IMG/VR virus record: IMGVR_UViG_2841255697_000002
Location: 10,177-74,176 of that record
From: a virus
Taxonomy: Duplodnaviria; Caudoviricetes
DNA: 64,000 bases
Reading direction: 5' to 3' (one strand)
Shown here: positions 4,001 to 34,667 of the stretch, in pieces
Position numbering within the stretch: position 1 is the stretch's first letter
Layout: every line of letters begins with the position of its first letter
Notes under the pieces: model-generated
The model's input: the letters and a program-made list of their open reading frames with translations, nothing else
Told to the model about the DNA's origin: nothing
The model's database searches: none
Position numbers and translations under genes: made by a program

Positions 4001-7000
4001 GAAGTTCAACTTCATCCTGCATTCCAGTCTGTTTTTCAAGAAGTCCATTTATAGCACCTAACAGAGTATGTTTAACACCGACAAGTCCATTAGAAGTATT
4101 TTCATCATTTAAAATATCTGATTGAACTTTCTTCGTATATTGTAAAAGACCGGTAATCGATCTATATTTCCCTTGCAGAGTATCAACACTATCAATTGCA
4201 TTTTTTATATCAGGAAACTTTAATACTGTTCCAATTTCATTGCCAGTTGCCATGTTAATATAAGAATTCAAGTAGTCTTTAAAGCCGAGCTTTGTGTTTT
4301 GTGCCTCAATAAAAGATTCAATATTGTCACTACTACCAGAATTCATAGCTTCTTTCCATTGATCAATATAATCACTGAAAGCACCACGGCTGAAGGTTGT
4401 TAAATCAGCCATTCTCTTTTGTTCAATTTCTTGGATTTGTTTTTGAATATCCATTTCTTTATTCAATAAATCCAAACGATTGAGTTCTTCACTGGAGAGT
4501 CCAGTTGTCTTTTGTTTCTCAGTTAATTCATTAATTTCACTGTCTAATTCATTGTACCGTTCATTGGCTTCATCAAGTTTTTTCTGCTGACGGTCAATTT
4601 CTTCACTGTTATATTTAACAACTAGAGTAAAGGCTGCAAAGGCAGCGGTAGCTAAACCAAGAGGGGAGAGCAAAGCTCCAAGGGCAAATTTACCAGCATT
4701 CATAGCTTTGTTTGCAAGTTCTTGTGCCCCCGCTTTAATGGTAATAGCTGCGGCCTGTGCTTTTTCAGAAGCAGCTGCGGCTATATTGGCAATCGTACTT
4801 TTACTTTCCTGGACAATCTCATTTTTGGTTGCAATAATATTGGATTTCTTGGCTGCCGTTTCTTCATTTATAGCTACGGTTGTGCTTTTGGTAGCAATGG
4901 TTTCTGCTGTAGATGTAGCAGCGCTTTCTTGATCTACCTTCGTACCAGCTTTTTTAGTAACTGTTTTTGAAGCTTCTGCTTTGGCTTCCTCTTTGCTAGC
5001 AGCAGATGAATATTTGTCCAGAACTGTTTTTTTCTTAGTTTCTTCACCAGCTTTTTTTGTTGCGGCAGCTTGCATGGTTAAGGCAGTTATGCAATTCCTG
5101 TCCTCTTCAGCGATCCCTTCAAGTCCTGCCATCATATTTTTACAAGCATTCGTATATTGAATGGCATTAATCTCGCCGGATTCAAGTGCCTGATTTAAAA
5201 TTTGAAACTCATTAGCAGCAGCGCCAATCATATTGTTACTTGTTGTCAAAGCGATTTCATTTGAAAGAGCTATTTCTTGTTGCATAGCCAGCAGATTTTT
5301 TAGACGTTCACTCGTAACATCTCGAATTGCTTCAGCTTCAGCACGCTTACTAGCTGTTCCAATAGTAGAGATTTCATTGAGTTTTTCAGTAACACCCATA
5401 TATTCATTGAGTTTTTTTACAACTGCAATCCCAATTGACAATTCTGCGAATACGACAACGGATTTTTGAACAGCTGGAGGAAGCTCATTGAACTTTTCTA
5501 ATAATCCTTCAGCTCCATTCATGATAGAGGTCATACCTTGTAAAACACCTGAGTTTGCAATAACTGTACCAAATTCAGCAATTGTAGCATATAAGGAGTT
5601 CCACTGATTTTTAAATGTCGTCATCAATGCAGCATTTTGTTGTTCCAGATAGCTTCCAGAGCCAGAACCCGCTTCTTCGATCATTCCATAATATTTGTCT
5701 GCCTCTTCTGTCCAGTTCTGAAGAAGTGTCAGTGCAACATCCCCTTGGCGAGTGGCACCAAGAGCCTCCTGAATCTGTTTTGCAAGAACATCATTACCTT
5801 CACGCATTGCCATATTATAAGCGCGACTAACCGTGTCCATTAATCCGGCGAAATCCTTAAACTTACCATTTGCCTCAGATAAAGAATAAGTTGCATCACC
5901 AGTGCTTTCTGCAATATCGTCAAAAAGAGTTCGTGTTTTAGTTCTTGTCAAATAAGACAAAATGGTTTTAATGGAATTCCCGGCCTCGTCACCACTTTTG
6001 GCGAGACGGTCACCCACGATAGAGGTCATAACGATAGCATCATTCATATTGCCGCTTACTGAAGTCATGAACCCACCGATTTTAGCAGCAGATTCACCAA
6101 ACTCATCTGCTGTACCAAGAGCTGTCTTATCAGCCATGTAGGCCCATTTATTAAGTGTCTCTATCCCTTCATCAACGTCCATATTAAACTGAAGCATTGA
6201 AGAGTTGACGAGTTTAACAGCCTTCTCAGCATCTTCGACTTCACCAACATTCATGAACTTTGCAGTTGCAGAAGATATTTTGTTCAGCAGTTCAGTGCTG
6301 TCGGCATATTTATCATTAATACGAACCCACGCAGCCTGAATTTCCTGGGCATCTGTAACTAAAATACCGGATTCTTTAGCAATCTGGATTGCAGAATCTG
6401 TAATTGCATTGGCAGTTTCTTCAGAGAAGTCCTGCATGATACGTTGAGTATTAACAGTATTGTAATTAATACTAATTATTTGAGAACCTAAATTTTCAAA
6501 AGCATCCGCTAAAGCTCTGACACCAAGAAGTTCCACACCGCCAGTTAGAATTGAAGATTTGAGACTTTGTCTGAAATTACTGCCCGTGTTTGAAGAAATA
6601 GAACTGTAACGTGTATCAAGCTGCTGCATAGAAGCTTTATAATCTTTTACTTGTTGAGCTAACTCTGCCTTTTTTGCGGCGGTTTCTTTTTGAGCATCAC
6701 GTACACGACTTTCAATTTCCTGCTTATTGTAAAGAGTCATAAGCTCATATGCTTCTTTTGAATATTTTGAAGTTTTGTCGGAAGAACGTTTTACTTCATT
6801 TTCAATCTGTGAAAATGCAGATTTTAATTTAGCCAATTCCGATGTTGTAGCTTTAGCATCGATTGGTGTTAATTTCCCACTGTCCAGTTTATTTTCAAGC
6901 TTATCTATTTCTTGCTTCAACTGAGCCATTGCCGATTTTGCAGACTCAGTACCAGCTTTCCATGCATCCTTAACCTCTTTAGCAAAATTACCCTGCGCTT

Positions 7001-10414: not shown

Positions 10415-10562
10415 CTTCCACCTCCAGGCGTTTGATGTCATTTGCAAGATCAAGGATACGTTTTCGAATAACTCCGAACTGAATCCCGTTGACCCCGCTC
10501 ACTTCAATGATATCTAGTAGAGAAATCGTATCCTGATAAATCTGGTCTTTATCCTTATGCAC
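10395..10562 (-). CDS. Small hypothetical protein (55 aa)
   Basis: GGAGGTGG RBS then GTG at 10562; overlaps both neighbours. Confidence 0.55.
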   Translation of the reverse strand: MHKDKDQIYQDTISLLDIIEVSGVNGIQFGVIRKRILDLANDIKRLEVEDGKFNN

Positions 10563-11028
10563 TGCCGCCACCTCCAAAAACCGACACAACGCCGATTACA
10601 CTTGAACCGCCTTTAACACGATCAATTTCAGTCTGCAAATATCGGTTAATCTGATAGATCGAGTCATTGATGGCTTCGGGCCTTTTTTCAAGACCTTTGA
10701 TCTCGAACGTCAGTGTTTTAAAGTTAATGGCATCACGGTTAAGTTCGTCTTTCAGGCGCATTAAATAGCAGCGGTAGGTGAAATAAGAGGCAAGAGATTT
10801 TTCCTTCATGGAGAGATCAATGGATATCCCTCGCACAACCATTTCTTTACCACTTTCTTCATCAATGCTTTTTTCTTCAGTGAAGACAAACGGCGTGTCA
10901 AGCGCGACACCCATCTCCATCAGTCCGTGTGCTGCAAGGTCTGTATCCTCCATCAGTTCAGAACGATAATCCTTCGGAATAAGTGCAATGGTGATATCCA
11001 GTATTTCCTTCAGCGTGGTTCCCATCAC
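10555..11028 (-). CDS. Putative head-tail adaptor
   Basis: Synteny downstream of capsid. Confidence 0.45.
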   Translation of the reverse strand: MMGTTLKEILDITIALIPKDYRSELMEDTDLAAHGLMEMGVALDTPFVFTEEKSIDEESGKEMVVRGISIDLSMKEKSLASYFTYRCYLMRLKDELNRDAINFKTLTFEIKGLEKRPEAINDSIYQINRYLQTEIDRVKGGSSVIGVVSVFGGGGSA

Positions 11029-11033
11029 ACCAC

Positions 11034-11465
11034 CTAAAGCAAGAGAGAGCCGTCAGAAACCGCCTTGATACGTTCGTCAATCGCCTTCATAAACGGCTCT
11101 TTTTTACCTTCATCATCAGCCTTCTGACGGATGTCCCTGAGCAGATTCAAAGAGTCGATGTCAGCTAATTTTTTCTTAAGGGTTGGTAGAGAGTAATCCA
11201 GTAGTTTGTCAATATCTTCATCCGACATAACATTTTCACTTTCGATCACCTCAACATCCGCTTTGGGGTCAACTTCCATCACTTGAATAAAACCCTTTTT
11301 AAAAGAACCAGGACAGGCTGTGGAGAGATACATGTATTCCTCCTGAGTCAGTCCAACCTCCATGTTGGGTTTCAGGTCATAATATTTGCCAGGGGTTACA
11401 AAGTCGAGGGAAATATGGAAATTGCCGCGCGACACATTTTTTACTTTAATAAGTTTTTCAGACAT
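11034..11465 (-). CDS. Hypothetical virion-module protein
   Basis: RBS AGGAG, intact ORF after capsid gene. Confidence 0.55.
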   Translation of the reverse strand: MSEKLIKVKNVSRGNFHISLDFVTPGKYYDLKPNMEVGLTQEEYMYLSTACPGSFKKGFIQVMEVDPKADVEVIESENVMSDEDIDKLLDYSLPTLKKKLADIDSLNLLRDIRQKADDEGKKEPFMKAIDERIKAVSDGSLLL

Positions 11466-11541
11466 AAAAGCTCCTTTCCGTTTTGGTTTCCTTCCATGGC
11501 ATCAGGGGGACAATGCCACCCCTGTCTGCCAATATTTAGCA

Positions 11542-12486
11542 TTAACCAGTTACTTCTATAACGAAAAGCCCGGTTGGCTTTGTGACGCAGTAGCCAATTT
11601 CCTTGTCGATCCGGCAAGACCAGCTCTTGTCATCAATTTTGGTTTCCTGCATGACTTCACTATCCCCATAGGTAGCGGCATAGCCGATCTTGTTACCAGC
11701 CAGGAATAACTTGTCCGTCGGCACAATTGATTTCTGGGTCACAGGATCAAGAATTTCAGGTAAGTAGAGGATATCGCAGCCACGATAGCGGCCTAACAGA
11801 CCCCTGTCTCGAATTTCATTGTACAGCGATTCACAGGAATCAAAACCGGCGAACCCTTCAATTTTAGTACACAGGTCAAAGTCACCGATAATGGTTGGCG
11901 CGCCGCCAGTCTTCTTACGGAGATAATTGATCGCCTTGTCCAAAGTAGCCTTGTCTAAAGCAGAAACCGCTTCATAATTGTTTTTATTAGAGGTTTCATT
12001 GTAGGTCTGAGCCAGAACTTCATAGACCTTATGGTAGATTTCCATTTCAATGGCATCTCGGCCATCACGGATCAGGTGTGCCAGGGAATCCAGACGGCCT
12101 GTTTTCAGTTCAGACAGTAAGCATTCAGGTCTTACGCCTAAGCCTTCAAACTGCATGGTGATTTCAGTTTCGTAGTTACGGGACATTGGCACGTATGCGT
12201 TTGGAGCAGTCCAATAAGCTTTAACGCCCTTCTTGTGGGTTTTAAAGAGGGGATTGTCACCATAATTGAAATGCTTGGTTTCAAAAATCTTTGGAGAAAT
12301 ATCAAAGGTATTGTAGCTGTCTTCAAGGGACATCTTAACAACCTCGGCAATTTCCTCACGACCCTGTTCAGTTCTTGCCAGTTTTGCAATCATCTGAGTC
12401 GCCTGTTTTACTTTTACGTCATTGCGGCTAATATCACCGCGTTCGATCTTTTCTGCTAATGCAATAATATTTTTTACTTCGCTCAT
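11542..12486 (-). CDS. Major capsid protein (HK97 fold)
   Basis: Size, position, GLLGRYRGCDILYLP motif, strong RBS, downstream hairpin. Confidence 0.8.
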   Translation of the reverse strand: MSEVKNIIALAEKIERGDISRNDVKVKQATQMIAKLARTEQGREEIAEVVKMSLEDSYNTFDISPKIFETKHFNYGDNPLFKTHKKGVKAYWTAPNAYVPMSRNYETEITMQFEGLGVRPECLLSELKTGRLDSLAHLIRDGRDAIEMEIYHKVYEVLAQTYNETSNKNNYEAVSALDKATLDKAINYLRKKTGGAPTIIGDFDLCTKIEGFAGFDSCESLYNEIRDRGLLGRYRGCDILYLPEILDPVTQKSIVPTDKLFLAGNKIGYAATYGDSEVMQETKIDDKSWSCRIDKEIGYCVTKPTGLFVIEVTG

Positions 12487-26384: not shown

Positions 26385-26477
26385 ATGGATTTTATAACTG
26401 GATTCATGTTTTGTCTTGGTGTTGAATATTTAGTTTGGATTGTTAGAGAAATTAATAAATGTGAGGTGGAGAAATGA
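26385..26477 (+). CDS. 30-aa membrane peptide
   Basis: MDFITGFMFCLGVEYLVWIVREINKCEVEK; stop overlaps ardA start (ATGA). Confidence 0.5.
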   Translation: MDFITGFMFCLGVEYLVWIVREINKCEVEK

Positions 26478-27001
26478 TTGAATTAAGAGGATATTTAACG
26501 AATCTCGAAAAATATAACGAGGGTGAATTGATAGGAGAATGGGTAACATTCCCAATTGACGAGGACGAACAAGACGAGATTTTTAAGAGAATAGGCATAA
26601 AGAATGAATATGGAGAATATTTCCTTGAATATTTCTTTACTGATTATGAATGTGATGTTCCCAGTGTATGTGATGATCTGGCGGAGTATTCCAGTATTGA
26701 TAATTTTAATGACTTAGCTGAAGCTTTAGAAAGTGTTGATGATGAGGACTTGTTAGCGGCTGCTATAGAACTCGGCGGGTATGATGTCATGGATATTATA
26801 GAAAACATCGACGATTACTCGTTACGTACAGATATAAATAACGATTATGACTTAGGTTATGAGTATATAGTTGAAGGCTGTGCTTTGGATACTCCAGATT
26901 ATCTTGAAAATTACATTGATTATGAGGCGTTTGGGCGTGACTTAAGAATGGACTTATACGGTGCTTTTACGGACTGGGGATGGGTGGAAAGAGTAGGATA
27001 A
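26474..27001 (+). CDS. ardA: Antirestriction protein ArdA (DNA mimic)
   Basis: TNLEKYNEGELIGEWVTFP, EYFFTDYE, YIDYEAFGRDL; very acidic. Confidence 0.9.
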   Translation: MIELRGYLTNLEKYNEGELIGEWVTFPIDEDEQDEIFKRIGIKNEYGEYFLEYFFTDYECDVPSVCDDLAEYSSIDNFNDLAEALESVDDEDLLAAAIELGGYDVMDIIENIDDYSLRTDINNDYDLGYEYIVEGCALDTPDYLENYIDYEAFGRDLRMDLYGAFTDWGWVERVG

Positions 27002-29080: not shown

Positions 29081-29251
29081 ATGATTAAATGTAAGGATAC
29101 GGCTTGTGCCTTTAATACATCTGGTGGAACCATGTGTTGTATTGAATGTGATCTTAGAGAGAATTGTACAAGTTTTTGTGGGGTTGCTGAAGAAGATGAA
29201 TGGCAAAATTGTGAGTATGCAATAGATATTGATAAAATTCAGTATGATTAA
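29081..29251 (+). CDS. Cys-rich small protein (56 aa)
   Basis: Not in track; GGAGG RBS; MIKCKDTACAF...CCIECDLRENCTSFC. Confidence 0.55.
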   Translation: MIKCKDTACAFNTSGGTMCCIECDLRENCTSFCGVAEEDEWQNCEYAIDIDKIQYD

Positions 29252-29389
29252 ATAATAGCTGCCCTATCGGCTATACGGGGATGCCTAACAATATGACCAA
29301 ATTGTAGAGTTCAAATTAGGAGGTGGTTAAATTGGTCTAATAGGCAATTCCATATTGTTTACCTCTTAGCCGGGGAAACCCGGTTTTAA

Positions 29390-29459
29390 CATCGGTTAGC
29401 TCAAGGCCGGTAGAGCAGACTGTAAAGTCAAGATAATGGTTCAAATCCATTACCGATGA
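29390..29459 (+). ncRNA. tRNA-like RNA with shortened anticodon arm (Tyr-like, GTA)
   Basis: Perfect acceptor CATCGGT/ACCGATG, D arm GCTC/GAGC, T arm AATGG-TTCAAAT-CCATT; anticodon arm only GAC-TGTAAA-GTC. Confidence 0.7.
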
Positions 29460-29517
29460 TCATTATGCCCGGTGTACTTACCATCCCGAAAATCTGGGAG
29501 TTGATATCAAGGGCAAA

Positions 29518-29685
29518 ATAATTGTGTTAAGAGAACTTTTATACTGTGCACAGGTAAAAGTCATGCGAACCTACACTGCATTAGGCTGTAAGGAGATAAG
29601 GCATATAGCACGCAGTTTGATCACCTGCAAAATTTTGGATATAAGTCAGATGCGATCCAGAAAATAGAGCACTTAACACAATTAT
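29518..29685 (+). ncRNA. Unassigned structured RNA (168 nt, multibranch)
   Basis: 14-bp closing helix ATAATTGTGTTAAG/CTTAACACAATTAT enclosing four hairpins. Confidence 0.55.
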
Positions 29686-29702
29686 ATTCATTATGGCAAC
29701 TT

Positions 29703-29778
29703 GGAGACTTAACTCAGCGGTTAGAGTGGGGAGCTTATATCTCTCTGGTCGGGGGTTCAAATCCCTCAGTCTCTACCA
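29703..29778 (+). tRNA. tRNA-Ile (anticodon UAU)
   Basis: Cloverleaf GGAGACT/AGTCTCT, anticodon arm GGGAG-CTTATAT-CTCTC, T loop TTCAAAT, encoded CCA. Confidence 0.88.
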
Positions 29779-29779
29779 T

Positions 29780-29824
29780 GGCGATGATAGGTCTATTCAT
29801 TCGGTTCGAGTCCGAACATCGCCG
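29780..29824 (+). ncRNA. tRNA minihelix-like RNA (acceptor stem + T arm only)
   Basis: GGCGATG-13 nt-TTCGG-TTCGAGT-CCGAA-CATCGCC-G. Confidence 0.65.
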
Positions 29825-29832
29825 CAATCTGA

Positions 29833-29978
29833 GAACAAGCTGTTTAGTCAAGGAAAGAGCTTGGGAGATTCCACTGGTTTGTGCATTGTACCAAAACTTG
29901 ACTAGGGAAACCGAAAGAAAAATGCACCTTTCTTTCAAACCTGTTCGGCGGTCAGGACAAAACCGCCAAAACTAAACA
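29833..29978 (+). ncRNA. Structured, pseudoknotted element in the rtcB 5' leader
   Basis: Helices TAGTCAAG/CTTGACTA, GAAAGAAA/TTTCTTTC, GGCGGT/ACCGCC; complementary loops GTGCATT/AATGCAC. Confidence 0.5.
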
Positions 29979-29990
29979 TAGGAGACAATA

Positions 29991-31196
29991 ATGTTAGAGA
30001 TCAAAGGCAAATACAACACTGCCAAAATATTTACAGAAAATATTGAAGATGAAGCTAAAAAACAGATAATGACTTTATGCGATCAAAAGTTCACTCAAGA
30101 TTCTAAAATTAGAATTATGCCAGATGTTCATGCAGGGGCGGGTTGCACCATAGGGACAACGATGACCATTAAAGACAAAGTTGTTCCAAATCTTGTTGGA
30201 GTCGATATAGGCTGTGGGATGGAAGTAGTGCAGCTACTCAATAAAGAAATTGATTTTAAGAAACTTGACAATGTTATTAGAGAGAACATACCCTTTGGTT
30301 TTCACGTAAGAACGAAGGCGTTAGAAGGCGCAATGATGATGAGGAAATCCATTAACGAACTAAAATGTGTGGATGAAGCAAATTTAAACGTTGATAGGGC
30401 TTTACAAAGCATTGGGACACTAGGTGGAGGAAATCACTTTATCGAGATTGACCAGGACGATGAAGGAATTCTATATTTAGTAATCCATTCAGGCAGTAGA
30501 CATCTTGGGGTAGAAGTAGCAAAGTATTATCAGAATTTAGCATATCGTTTATTGGATAATACCAGAGTTAAAAAACAAGAAATCATTAATGCTGCAATCG
30601 CAGAAGGATGTGAACAAGAGATTGAAAAACGTCTCAAAGTGTTTCAATCCTCATATGAGCGGATGCCGAAAGAATTATCATATCTTGAGAATCAATCTTA
30701 CCTAGATTATTTGATGGATATGATAATTGTACAGAAATATGCCGACATAAACAGAAAAATGATTTCGGAACAGATTATCAAGAAAATGGATTTGGAAGTT
30801 CAAGAAAGTTTTTCTACCATTCACAATTATATTGACATAGATATGATGATTCTGCGCAAGGGAGCCGTATCAGCAAAAAAGGGAGAAAAGCTTCTTATCC
30901 CAATGAACATGCGCGATGGCAGTTTGATATGTATTGGAAAGGGCAATCCAGAATGGAATTTCTCAGCACCGCATGGAGCTGGGCGGTTATTTTCAAGAAG
31001 TCAGGCGAAAAGGCGATTTTCAGTGGAAGTGTTTAAAGAAGAAATGTCAAATGTATACTCTACAACTGTTTCTGAGATGACACTTGATGAAAGCCCAATG
31101 GCCTACAAACCAATGGAGGAAATCATAAAAAATATAAAAGAAACTGCGGATGTCAAAAAAGTTATTAAGCCGGTATACAATTTTAAGGCAGATTAA
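29991..31196 (+). CDS. rtcB: RNA 2',3'-cyclic phosphate/5'-OH ligase RtcB
   Basis: MPDVHAG, GVDIGCG, GTLGGGNHFIE, IHSGSR, HNY, RKGA, SAPHGAGR, DESPMAYK. Confidence 0.95.
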   Translation: MLEIKGKYNTAKIFTENIEDEAKKQIMTLCDQKFTQDSKIRIMPDVHAGAGCTIGTTMTIKDKVVPNLVGVDIGCGMEVVQLLNKEIDFKKLDNVIRENIPFGFHVRTKALEGAMMMRKSINELKCVDEANLNVDRALQSIGTLGGGNHFIEIDQDDEGILYLVIHSGSRHLGVEVAKYYQNLAYRLLDNTRVKKQEIINAAIAEGCEQEIEKRLKVFQSSYERMPKELSYLENQSYLDYLMDMIIVQKYADINRKMISEQIIKKMDLEVQESFSTIHNYIDIDMMILRKGAVSAKKGEKLLIPMNMRDGSLICIGKGNPEWNFSAPHGAGRLFSRSQAKRRFSVEVFKEEMSNVYSTTVSEMTLDESPMAYKPMEEIIKNIKETADVKKVIKPVYNFKAD

Positions 31197-31214
31197 GGCA
31201 TTTTATTGCCTTAA

Positions 31215-31290
31215 GGGGGTATCGCCAAGTCGGTAAGGCACAGGATTTTGATTCCTGAATACACCGGTTCGATTCCGGTTACCCCTTCCA
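31215..31290 (+). tRNA. tRNA-Gln (UUG)
   Basis: Cloverleaf, CAGGA-TTTTGAT-TCCTG anticodon arm, encoded CCA. Confidence 0.9.
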
Positions 31291-31295
31291 ATTTT

Positions 31296-31371
31296 ATAGG
31301 TGTAGTTCAAGCGGCAGAACAACAGTCTCCAAAACTGTAAGATGTAGGTTCAAATCCTACTACCTATGCCA
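31296..31371 (+). tRNA. tRNA-Trp (CCA)
   Basis: Cloverleaf, ACAGT-CTCCAAA-ACTGT anticodon arm, encoded CCA. Confidence 0.9.
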
Positions 31372-33674: not shown

Positions 33675-34667
33675 ATGAGAAAAAATACGATTGGAAAATT
33701 AGAAGGTTACAAAGATGTCATTAAAGCGAAAGATCTTAAAGATATTCTAGATATAAATTTAGGTAAGGTTTATCAGTTATTAAATTCTGGAGAGATCAAA
33801 GCAAAGAAAGATGACACGGGTTATTGGATTATACGCAAACAATCTGTGGCAGAATATTTAGACAGGATTGAAGAAACAACGAATACAAACATAAACAGCT
33901 CTGATTTAATCAATATTCGAGATCGACAAGGTCAAATGGTTGTCAGCAGCCGGGAGGTGGCACAGAATTTTGGAAAACGTCATGATCATATTTTAAGAGA
34001 CGTTAAAAATATGATGAAAAATGACTCACCCCAAAATTGGGGACAGTATTTCATTACATCAGAATATAAAGATTTAAGCGGGAAGTCCAATAGAGAGTAC
34101 CTTTGTACCCGGGACGGTTTCACATTATTAGCAATGGGATTTACCGGGCAGAAAGCTATCGAGTGGAAGATCAAATACATCGACGCATTCAATAAGATGG
34201 AGCAAACTATCAATGAACAAGGGATTGTGCTGCCAAAAGATTTTTCTTCAGCATGTCGGATGTTAGCTGATCAATTTGAAGAAAACCAACGATTAAACGA
34301 ACAAGTTCTGGAAATGAAACCGAAAACAGAATACCTAGACACACTGCTAAAAACCGATAATCTTTTAACGGTGACAACCATTGCCAAAGCCTATGGTATG
34401 TCCGCAGAAGCATTTAATCAACTCTTACATAGTCTTGGTATCCAATGGAGATATAAAGGCAGAAATCAAAAGTGGCATCTTTACCAGGAATATACGAATG
34501 AAGGTTATGCTTATGAACAATGGTATATTGATCCTGAGACAAATGATAAACATTATAGCGGTTTAAAATGGACAAACAAAGGCGTTAAATTCTTATACGA
34601 GCTATTAAATGAGAATGGTATTCAGCCATTAGTTGAGATGAAACCAGAATTTGGATTGGTATCATAG
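33675..34667 (+). CDS. Antirepressor: excisionase-like HTH + Rha + KilAC/ANT domains
   Basis: SSREVAQNFGKRHDHILRD, TRDGFTLLAMGFTGQKA, TVTTIAKAYGMSA, WTNKG. Confidence 0.88.
   Translation: MRKNTIGKLEGYKDVIKAKDLKDILDINLGKVYQLLNSGEIKAKKDDTGYWIIRKQSVAEYLDRIEETTNTNINSSDLINIRDRQGQMVVSSREVAQNFGKRHDHILRDVKNMMKNDSPQNWGQYFITSEYKDLSGKSNREYLCTRDGFTLLAMGFTGQKAIEWKIKYIDAFNKMEQTINEQGIVLPKDFSSACRMLADQFEENQRLNEQVLEMKPKTEYLDTLLKTDNLLTVTTIAKAYGMSAEAFNQLLHSLGIQWRYKGRNQKWHLYQEYTNEGYAYEQWYIDPETNDKHYSGLKWTNKGVKFLYELLNENGIQPLVEMKPEFGLVS

Follow-up and report, generated by a model that had tools for sequence, protein, structure and literature searches.

A prophage tRNA and rtcB cluster carrying a drum RNA, a family that also stands upstream of predicted RNase genes and within phage tRNA arrays

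We analysed an island of structured RNAs around rtcB, a gene for an RNA ligase, in a 64-kb stretch of phage DNA (64,000 nt, hereafter the window) that is part of the 74-kb IMG/VR provirus record IMGVR_UViG_2841255697_000002, for which a completeness of 49% is estimated. The island begins with 739 nt (29252-29990) between the stop of a 56-amino-acid (aa) open reading frame (ORF; stop at 29251) and the rtcB ATG (29991), and it continues through rtcB into two tRNA genes. An initial annotation had described about 730 nt of ORF-free DNA before rtcB, and this was borne out: the ORF list holds merely mechanical frames of 47-70 aa in 29252-29990, none of them supported. The island belongs to the phage clusters of tRNAs and RtcB and has an already described orphan RNA, the drum RNA, directly in front of rtcB. 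Its features are the following.

29252 to 29389, + strand: 5' spacer (fold z = -1.83, 9/200 shuffles as good; no Rfam hit)
29390 to 29459, + strand: tRNA-like unit with a stub anticodon arm (Rfam RF00005, 43.5 bits, cut-off 29; fold z = -3.14)
29460 to 29519, + strand: junction between the tRNA-like unit and the 168-nt RNA (fold z = -1.76, 11/200 shuffles as good; inside an RNA-library contig)
29518 to 29685, + strand: orphan 168-nt RNA candidate (minimum free energy, MFE, -41.1 kcal/mol; z = -2.75)
29703 to 29778, + strand: tRNA-Ile(UAU), CCA encoded (ARAGORN; Rfam 63 bits)
29780 to 29824, + strand: tRNA minihelix, acceptor plus T arm (motif scanner; stems 29780-29823, discriminator G at 29824)
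29826 to 29930, + strand: drum RNA, RF02958 (Rfam 53.1 bits, cut-off 43, model 1-112 full length; our own model R1, 59.5 bits)
29991 to 31196, + strand: rtcB, 401 aa, Shine-Dalgarno (SD) sequence AGGAG at 29980-29984 (Pfam PF01139, E 6.4e-63)
31215 to 31290, + strand: tRNA-Gln(UUG) (ARAGORN; Rfam 64.9 bits)
31296 to 31371, + strand: tRNA-Trp(CCA) (ARAGORN; Rfam 65.2 bits)

The leader of rtcB had been described as a pseudoknotted, structured RNA of an unknown kind. Structured and covarying it is, but it is not new, being a drum RNA of Rfam family RF02958. It has the elements that define this family, namely P1, a k-turn, P2 and P3 enclosing the core ACCNCAA..UAGG..CCGAAAGAAAA. In the window copy P1 is formed by AAUC and GAUU, the k-turn has a UGA bulge with GAA against GGA, P3 pairs GUGCA with UGCAC, and the core reads ACCAAAACUUGACUAGG...CCGAAAGAAAAA. 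In an alignment of 27 drums (the window copy and 26 others) 90.9% of the cells were paired, and the covariation reached 0.833 versus at most 0.18 in slid controls. The rtcB leader therefore holds a bona fide drum RNA. The drum motif was described by Weinberg et al. 2017 (PMC5737381), whose passage on it places a Rho-independent terminator directly 3' of the RNA, considers drum improbable as a riboswitch because it rarely occurs in 5' untranslated regions (5'-UTRs), and mentions a 'compelling association' with a nearby protein; given this wording, the link between drum and a protein may partly be in print already. Folding of the drum k-turn is shown in the relevant passage of PMC8191799. Our literature search found no functional study of drum.

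In other genomes, drum was found in the company of genes of the PBECR4 family. PBECR4 (PF18813) is a predicted metal-independent endoribonuclease (endoRNase) of the BECR fold. Drum was present in four of 151 Clostridia genomes, in five copies, two of which lay directly 5' of PBECR4. Conversely, PBECR4 was found in 21 of 400 genomes at 24 places, and model R1 detected a drum just upstream at nine of these places with E<=6e-8 and at four more with E = 0.003-0.04. All 13 hits were upstream of the gene and on the same strand. The two elements co-occurred in three of the four drum-positive genomes (Fisher P = 2.8e-5, taking the 151 genomes as a subset of the 400). Inspection of 11 drum-PBECR4 sequences revealed the same order throughout, that is drum, a GC hairpin, a ribosome-binding site (RBS) and the ATG, and in 10 of them the hairpin was followed by a run of at least four U. 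At two of the loci, L342 (genome G185) and L352 (genome G126), the drum scored 96.9 bits with R1 at the same positions, 2121-2234, with 205-aa PBECR4 frames beside it; the alike scores and positions suggest that both carry a nearly identical module that moved recently. In IMG/VR, a PBECR4-anchored scan retrieved the already known locus alone.

Upstream of PBECR4 genes that have no drum, tandem direct repeats followed by a terminator were observed (loci L333, L336, L338, L340, L341 and L347), with two repeats of 52-65 nt (or 32 nt) in five of the six regions tested. At four tandem-repeat loci the unit ends in ..ACAGAAAA, close to the drum core and written GGTTGGC.GACAACAGAAAAA, and at L347 an exact 25-nt repeat recurs at a spacing of 32 nt. 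The element ACAGAAAA/GAAAGAAAA is a candidate cleavage or binding motif that may be common to drum and to these repeats. In type III toxin-antitoxin systems (ToxIN, CptIN, TenpIN) an RNA, a terminator and an endoRNase gene follow each other in this order, the RNA neutralises the RNase, and phages can escape through a pseudo-ToxI. By analogy, the tandem repeats before the drum-less PBECR4 genes look like a type III antitoxin array, and the order of drum, terminator, RBS and PBECR4, together with these repeats, reproduces the layout of such systems. No papers tying PBECR or BECR RNases to RNA antitoxins were found in the literature search.

In the window, rtcB occupies the slot that is usually held by PBECR4. 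Its ATG lies 60 nt past the end of drum, with a hairpin and the SD sequence in between, and the spacers of the drum-PBECR4 modules are similar in length. The hairpin (29947-29967; 6 bp, GC) stands where those modules have their terminator; as no U-tract follows it, read-through into rtcB is expected. The segment UUUCUUUC (29929-29936) can pair perfectly with the conserved GAAAGAAA of the drum (29913-29920), giving an 8-bp hairpin seen in one MFE structure, and its first 6 nt can alternatively pair with the rtcB SD sequence AGGAGA (29980-29985), as seen in another. These modelled pairing alternatives may constitute a translational switch. Drum might accordingly be read as a cis-acting leader, riboswitch-like or protein-binding, which would control PBECR4 via the terminator and rtcB via the anti-SD switch at 29929-29936. 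The position of all 13 drum hits 5' of PBECR4, on its strand and with a terminator in between, would be explained in this way, as would the two pairing partners of UUUCUUUC. We nevertheless consider a cis-acting role unlikely, because a comparable switch sequence was not evident after drum in the 11 inspected drum-PBECR4 sequences, because the passage of Weinberg et al. cited above speaks against a riboswitch, and because drums also reside within tRNA arrays, where no ORF follows.

Such arrays emerged from a survey of phage drums, which were gathered by a pattern scan (matches listed) and then with R1, and to which the drums of a first scan and the window were added. At least 20 drum clusters in at least 17 contig lineages were obtained. 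Among the matches listed, eight of 20 clusters lay within 400 nt of a tRNA on the same strand and none near a tRNA on the opposite strand; with two sub-threshold copies dropped, six of 18 clusters remained near a tRNA, and counted by contig lineage it was five of 17. The background, determined on 93 drum-less loci of the same scan, was 2.8% of positions, which for the matches listed gives an enrichment with P ~3e-8 by cluster and ~8e-5 by lineage. In the phage locus L311 three drums and the tRNAs for Gln, Phe, Tyr and Thr follow each other in alternation, 5-6 nt apart, and in L309 a weak drum is flanked on both sides by tRNAs about 3 nt away, of which ARAGORN calls the upstream tRNA-Tyr alone, at 1 nt. 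The drums within arrays have no terminator behind them; instead of an ORF, tRNAs are found 1-6 nt away. This spacing in same-strand arrays fits processing of drum and tRNAs from one precursor.

PBECR4 was found in none of the five phage records with a drum in a tRNA array, one of which is 100% complete, and one of the five has rtcB elsewhere. Among the matches listed, L241 is the only phage lineage in which PBECR4 follows drum, in the order integrase, drum, PBECR4, in a prophage. The other solo drums are located at prophage ends or beside AIPR, AAA_21, HipA or GIY-YIG genes. Metallophosphoesterase genes beside drum-bearing arrays were considered as RNA-end healing enzymes and rejected, since their PHROGs are SbcD-type DNA exonucleases. 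The L311 array (6524-6616 and 10537-11675, both on the - strand) combines drums and tRNAs with a skipping-rope RNA (RF02924, 59 bits) about 200 nt from another tRNA, so that two orphan RNA families are present in one phage tRNA array. In another phage locus, L047, a tRNA-like element (4487-4557, + strand) with a CAU anticodon loop, encoded CCA and odd D and T loops (Rfam 45 bits, no ARAGORN call) lies 150 nt upstream of a drum and before an integrase gene.

The remaining genes of the island are of known kinds. The three tRNAs placed around rtcB by the initial annotation are all real (ARAGORN calls with Rfam scores of 63-65 bits), and with default settings ARAGORN reports exactly these three in the whole window, all on the + strand. 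RtcB is an RNA ligase that joins 3'-phosphate or 2',3'-cyclic phosphate ends to 5'-OH ends. The window protein matches PF01139 essentially over its full length (profile positions 14-425 of 426). Residues of the motifs GVDIGCG, GGGNHF, HSGSR and PHGAGR presumably serve metal binding and the formation of GMP-histidine. All four motifs are retained (D/C, H, H and H, respectively) in the blocks that align with the RtcB of P. horikoshii (PDB 1uc2), and one ligand histidine lies outside these blocks. By this comparison, the window RtcB keeps the metal-binding and GMP-histidine motifs of its family.

Two further units of the island are derived from, or built like, tRNAs. The initial annotation had recognised a tRNA with a shrunken anticodon arm, and the Rfam score and fold of the unit at 29390-29459 uphold this. 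Its acceptor, D and T arms are perfect: the acceptor stem has 7 bp (C1-G72), the D arm contains GG and the T loop reads UUCAAAU. The discriminator is A, and CCA is not encoded. The anticodon arm consists of a 3-bp stem and a 6-nt loop, five RF00005 model positions being deleted, and thus lacks the 5-bp stem, 7-nt loop and three-letter anticodon of a regular cloverleaf even though the unit scores as one. ARAGORN calls it at -ps80 with a two-letter 'anticodon' and makes no call at default; at very low thresholds or in mitochondrial mode, the program added only overlapping, implausible calls. The unit is tRNA-derived but departs from a tRNA in its anticodon arm. The minihelix at 29780-29824 likewise has real tRNA architecture, as had been claimed: all 7/7 acceptor pairs form, a linker of 13 nt leads to the T arm, and the T stem of 5 bp carries the loop UUCGAGU. 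It starts 1 nt past tRNA-Ile and abuts the drum RNA. A motif scan of both strands of the 64-kb window gave five matches, namely the three tRNAs, the tRNA-like unit and the minihelix, compared with 0.107 hits per shuffled window. The minihelix is probably a tRNA gene stripped of its D and anticodon arms and a decaying relic. Nothing in the analysis supports the decoy role that had been proposed for the anticodon-less units.

Reduced tRNA-like units were also encountered at other rtcB loci. An acceptor-plus-T-arm minihelix lies 5 nt past tRNA-Ala at the rtcB locus L038 (4915-4966, + strand), and D-arm-less units occur near rtcB at L328 (3389-3451, + strand) and L192 (80-137, - strand); altogether, armless units at other phage and metagenome rtcB loci numbered eight in 2.19 Mb, with about two expected by chance. 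At L022 and L023 (2760-2846, + strand in both) the array just 5' of a phage rtcB includes an ARAGORN tRNA with a four-letter anticodon (ctaa; Rfam 32.5 bits), which could represent a decayed gene or else a tRNA of the quadruplet or suppressor type.

The proximity of a tRNA-like RNA and rtcB invites a comparison with Ro60/Y-RNA quality-control modules of the type rsr-yrlBA-rtcBA in Salmonella, in which the unit would be a YrlA-type mimic; the tRNA-like domain of YrlA-type RNAs likewise lacks a normal anticodon arm, as stated in the pertinent part of PMC4201824. This analogy fails. PF05731 (TROVE/Ro60) had no match at E<=1 in the 74-kb record with its estimated completeness of 49%, in agreement with the annotated absence of a Ro60 gene, and Rfam gave no match to Y-RNA families at E<=10. 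Moreover, the acceptor ends of the unit are free, a long Ro-binding stem is missing, and the flanks do not extend the acceptor stem. We regard a module of this kind as very improbable here.

The 168-nt multibranch RNA of the initial annotation stands in part. Its closing stem of 14 bp (29518-29531 with 29672-29685) surrounds about five hairpins, and only 1/200 shuffles folds as well, but the element had no match in Rfam at E<=10 and no DNA relative in phage GenBank records by blastn or among 355 fetched loci and the window, and one of its closing pairs is broken in variants X2 and X8. A pattern scan for the closing stem produced a single match, which is a chance one and lies next to an unrelated tRNA and integrase. 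Instead of an RNA, the segment could encode a small protein, of 47 aa if started at GTG 29524 or of 34 aa if started at ATG 29563, or it could be a miniature inverted-repeat element whose terminal repeats are 14 bp long, in keeping with its open frame with plausible ribosome-binding sites, the perfect inverted repeat at its ends and the uncompensated change in the closing pair. However, no homologue of the 47-aa ORF was found by protein search, its GTG would be buried in the 14-bp stem, no second copy of the element was present in the window or the 355 loci, and the fold exceeds 199/200 shuffles, which together make these alternatives quite unlikely. We interpret the 168-nt RNA as a putative expressed orphan. 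Circularisation of this RNA by RtcB, with the ends held together by the stem, was also considered and rejected, because neither a ribozyme nor any other generator of 5'-OH and cyclic-phosphate ends was found with Rfam and because the assembled RNA is a linear contig.

The two remaining segments of the island fold no better than expected by chance. The 5' spacer, annotated as a small pseudoknot, contains three hairpins: one at 29255-29274, a long and irregular one, and a GC hairpin with a GAAA loop (29370-29383) followed by UUUU before the tRNA-like unit, the last of which was not flagged in the terminator scan; its fold as a whole is indistinguishable from chance. The same applies to the junction, which had been counted as a 50-nt unit of its own. 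The nearly gapless tiling of the leader by seven folded units, as first described, is thus real for tRNA-Ile, the tRNA-like unit, the minihelix and drum, while two of the seven are at chance level and the 168-nt RNA is a weak case.

Near-identical copies of the island (97-99%) are present in public sequencing runs of several studies, and they differ too little to be informative on covariation. In the 98%-identical variant X2, 10 of the 18 differences in 29201-30029 were listed, and none of these 10 falls in tRNA-Ile or the tRNA-like unit; G29824>A alters the discriminator of the minihelix. For the variants X6, X7 and X8, parts without cover were not counted as evidence. The run X8 stems from an RNA library and yielded one 282-nt contig with a depth of 11 that spans 29398-29679, that is the tRNA-like unit (from 29398), the junction and the 168-nt RNA, while rtcB of this phage, drum and the flanks are uncovered. 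The contig is a hint of a stable transcript.

Searches for relatives of the whole island were negative. Blastn against phage GenBank records returned rtcB and tRNA matches alone. RtcB-anchored scans reached best identities of 56% in IMG/VR, 60% in GTDB genomes and 60% in metagenomes, and the upstream RNAs were common to none of these loci. When each non-tRNA segment was compared by blastn with the window and all fetched loci, no match had an E below 0.02. Collecting phage rtcB loci, as the initial annotation had suggested, therefore brought no conserved relative of the island to light, and none of the 43 phage loci carries drum. In six of these 43 loci, tRNAs lie beside rtcB.

These observations bear on a rival explanation, according to which the locus is a phage tRNA cluster of the ordinary kind in which rtcB is a passenger, the tRNAs tune codon supply (AUA, CAA, UGG), the tRNA-like unit and the minihelix are decaying tRNA pseudogenes, and drum and the 168-nt stretch are unrelated hitch-hikers that do not work together. 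It agrees with the frequency of tRNAs beside phage rtcB, the lack of a conserved relative of the island, the two chance-level segments among seven and the broken stem of the minihelix in the nearest variant. A random presence of drum is nevertheless improbable in view of its enrichment in phage tRNA arrays and beside one family of RNase genes. Furthermore, the tRNA-like unit has perfect acceptor, D and T arms and is spared by the X2 differences listed. We therefore rate this explanation as rather unlikely.

The surroundings of the island place it in a functional context. An anti-restriction protein gene (26474 to 27001, + strand; PHROG 2059, E 1.4e-24) lies 2.3 kb upstream on the same strand, and an Ant/Rha antirepressor gene was identified at 33675-34667 by family search. 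Their vicinity points to an early or host-takeover region. The five ORFs between the anti-restriction gene and the island had no family match. The last of the frames before the island, the 56-aa ORF (29081-29251, + strand), is Cys-rich (9 Cys), and Pfam and PHROG gave no match for it. A promoter and terminator scan found sites no more numerous than in shuffles, and DUF3800 was not found in the record.

Taken as a whole, the data are best explained by an island for tRNA supply and RNA repair with an antitoxin-like RNA aboard, located in a prophage, on one strand and in an early or host-takeover region; our confidence in this explanation is evenly balanced. The island would be transcribed as one precursor, in which RNase P and RNase Z would cut at the tRNA-shaped units and thereby free drum and the other RNAs. 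Drum would act in trans and would belong to the biology of the PBECR4 RNase; a solo drum without PBECR4, as in this phage, would blunt a PBECR4-type RNase, in parallel to pseudo-ToxI. RtcB would reseal the 2',3'-cyclic-phosphate/5'-OH breaks left by such RNases, and the three tRNAs would replace or supplement the targets. The initial annotation had seen in the island a phage counter-defence module and an undescribed system. The former idea retains support from RtcB, the replacement tRNAs, the reality of the truncated tRNA units, the anti-restriction gene upstream and the position of drum 5' of a predicted RNase elsewhere, but not in its decoy component, and the stem of the minihelix is broken in X2. 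The latter was overstated; the most structured of the 'unknown' RNAs is drum, a family already in Rfam, and tRNAs next to phage rtcB are common.

A further-reaching proposal, which we put forward tentatively and hold to be possible but doubtful, is that drum serves PBECR4 as its RNA antitoxin or immunity RNA, defining a new type III-like family with a BECR-fold toxin, and that the solo drums of phage tRNA arrays are anti-toxin RNAs which the enzymes of tRNA processing set free. This prophage would then couple drum to RtcB in the toxin slot, so that a single transcript would provide an inhibitor RNA, the repair of breaks and spare tRNAs, and the RNA comprising the tRNA-like unit and the 168-nt element would be a further undescribed member of this kit.

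Several findings weigh against the proposed tRNA supply and repair island with an antitoxin-like RNA. Drum was found at none of 203 other rtcB loci, all with an RtcB at most 60% identical to that of the window (43 phage loci searched with Rfam; 80 genome and 80 metagenome loci with R1); the adjacency of drum and rtcB is unique to the window and so without comparative support. PF18813 had no match at E<=1 in the 74-kb record, and no drum was detected in the Acetivibrio genomes G001 and G002 and no PBECR4 in G001. The window drum itself has a short P2 of 6 bp that is poorly aligned by the model and a score near the low end, and the hairpin behind it is followed by AAAAC rather than U's and was not flagged by the terminator scan, so that it departs from the drum terminator. 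Within the island, G29783>T and G29821>A in X2 break two adjacent pairs of the minihelix stem without compensation, T29674>A in X2 and X8 costs the 168-nt RNA one closing pair, again uncompensated, and the RNA evidence is a single assembled contig from a single run that possibly reflects DNA carry-over. As judged from gene order, drum could also be a cis leader, a substrate or a cofactor of PBECR4 rather than its inhibitor, and the passage on drum in PMC5737381 fits a strict antitoxin layout less well. Finally, tRNA supplementation alone accounts for many phage tRNA clusters.

What makes the island valuable is the lead that it gives on drum and PBECR4 rather than its truncated tRNA mimics. Since 2017 drum has had the status of an orphan among structured RNAs, and the layout found here offers a cheap and concrete lead to its function. 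In the window, the gene behind drum encodes a ligase for exactly the kind of break that a BECR RNase makes, and this is the only case found that joins a repair enzyme and drum in one unit. If the proposal is true, there is a new family of RNase toxins with RNA antitoxins, and phage tRNA arrays carry anti-toxin RNAs besides tRNAs. Should it fail, what is left is a phage cluster of tRNAs and rtcB of the ordinary kind, with relics.

Comparison with known systems delimits what is particular to this locus. The window leader resembles the drum family in score, in P1, the k-turn, P2 and P3, and in the ACC..UAGG..CCGAAAGAAAA core, and differs from it in the missing U-tract terminator, the short P2 and the position in front of rtcB, where none of the 203 other loci shows a drum. 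With type III toxin-antitoxin systems, the drum-PBECR4 modules share the order of RNA element, terminator and endoRNase, the tandem repeats of some loci and the solo RNA copies in phages; in contrast, PBECR4 is predicted to adopt a BECR fold and is not of the ToxN type, drum is one elaborate unit and not a short repeat, and the window has no toxin gene. The phage T4 tRNA cluster includes the stable RNAs C and D, which lie between tRNA genes and are released by tRNA processing enzymes. The window is likened to it by description, as it too has small RNAs between phage tRNA genes.

The Salmonella rsr-yrlBA-rtcBA locus and YrlA, as far as the relevant parts of PMC4201824 and PMC7790460 describe them, also place RtcB next to a tRNA mimic without a working anticodon, whereas the window is devoid of Ro60, RtcA, RtcR and a Ro-binding stem, and its unit has ordinary free acceptor ends. 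In the main text of PMC5737381, the large orphan RNAs GOLLD and ROOL are reported near tRNAs in prophages, the tRNA proximity being given there for these RNAs and not for drum. Like phage tRNA/RtcB arrays and GOLLD or ROOL loci, the island combines tRNAs on one strand with an RNA ligase and with structured RNAs other than tRNAs, for which joint transcription is presumed; it differs in the identity of these RNAs, which comprise a drum, the tRNA-like unit with its stub of an anticodon arm, a minihelix and an orphan of 168 nt.

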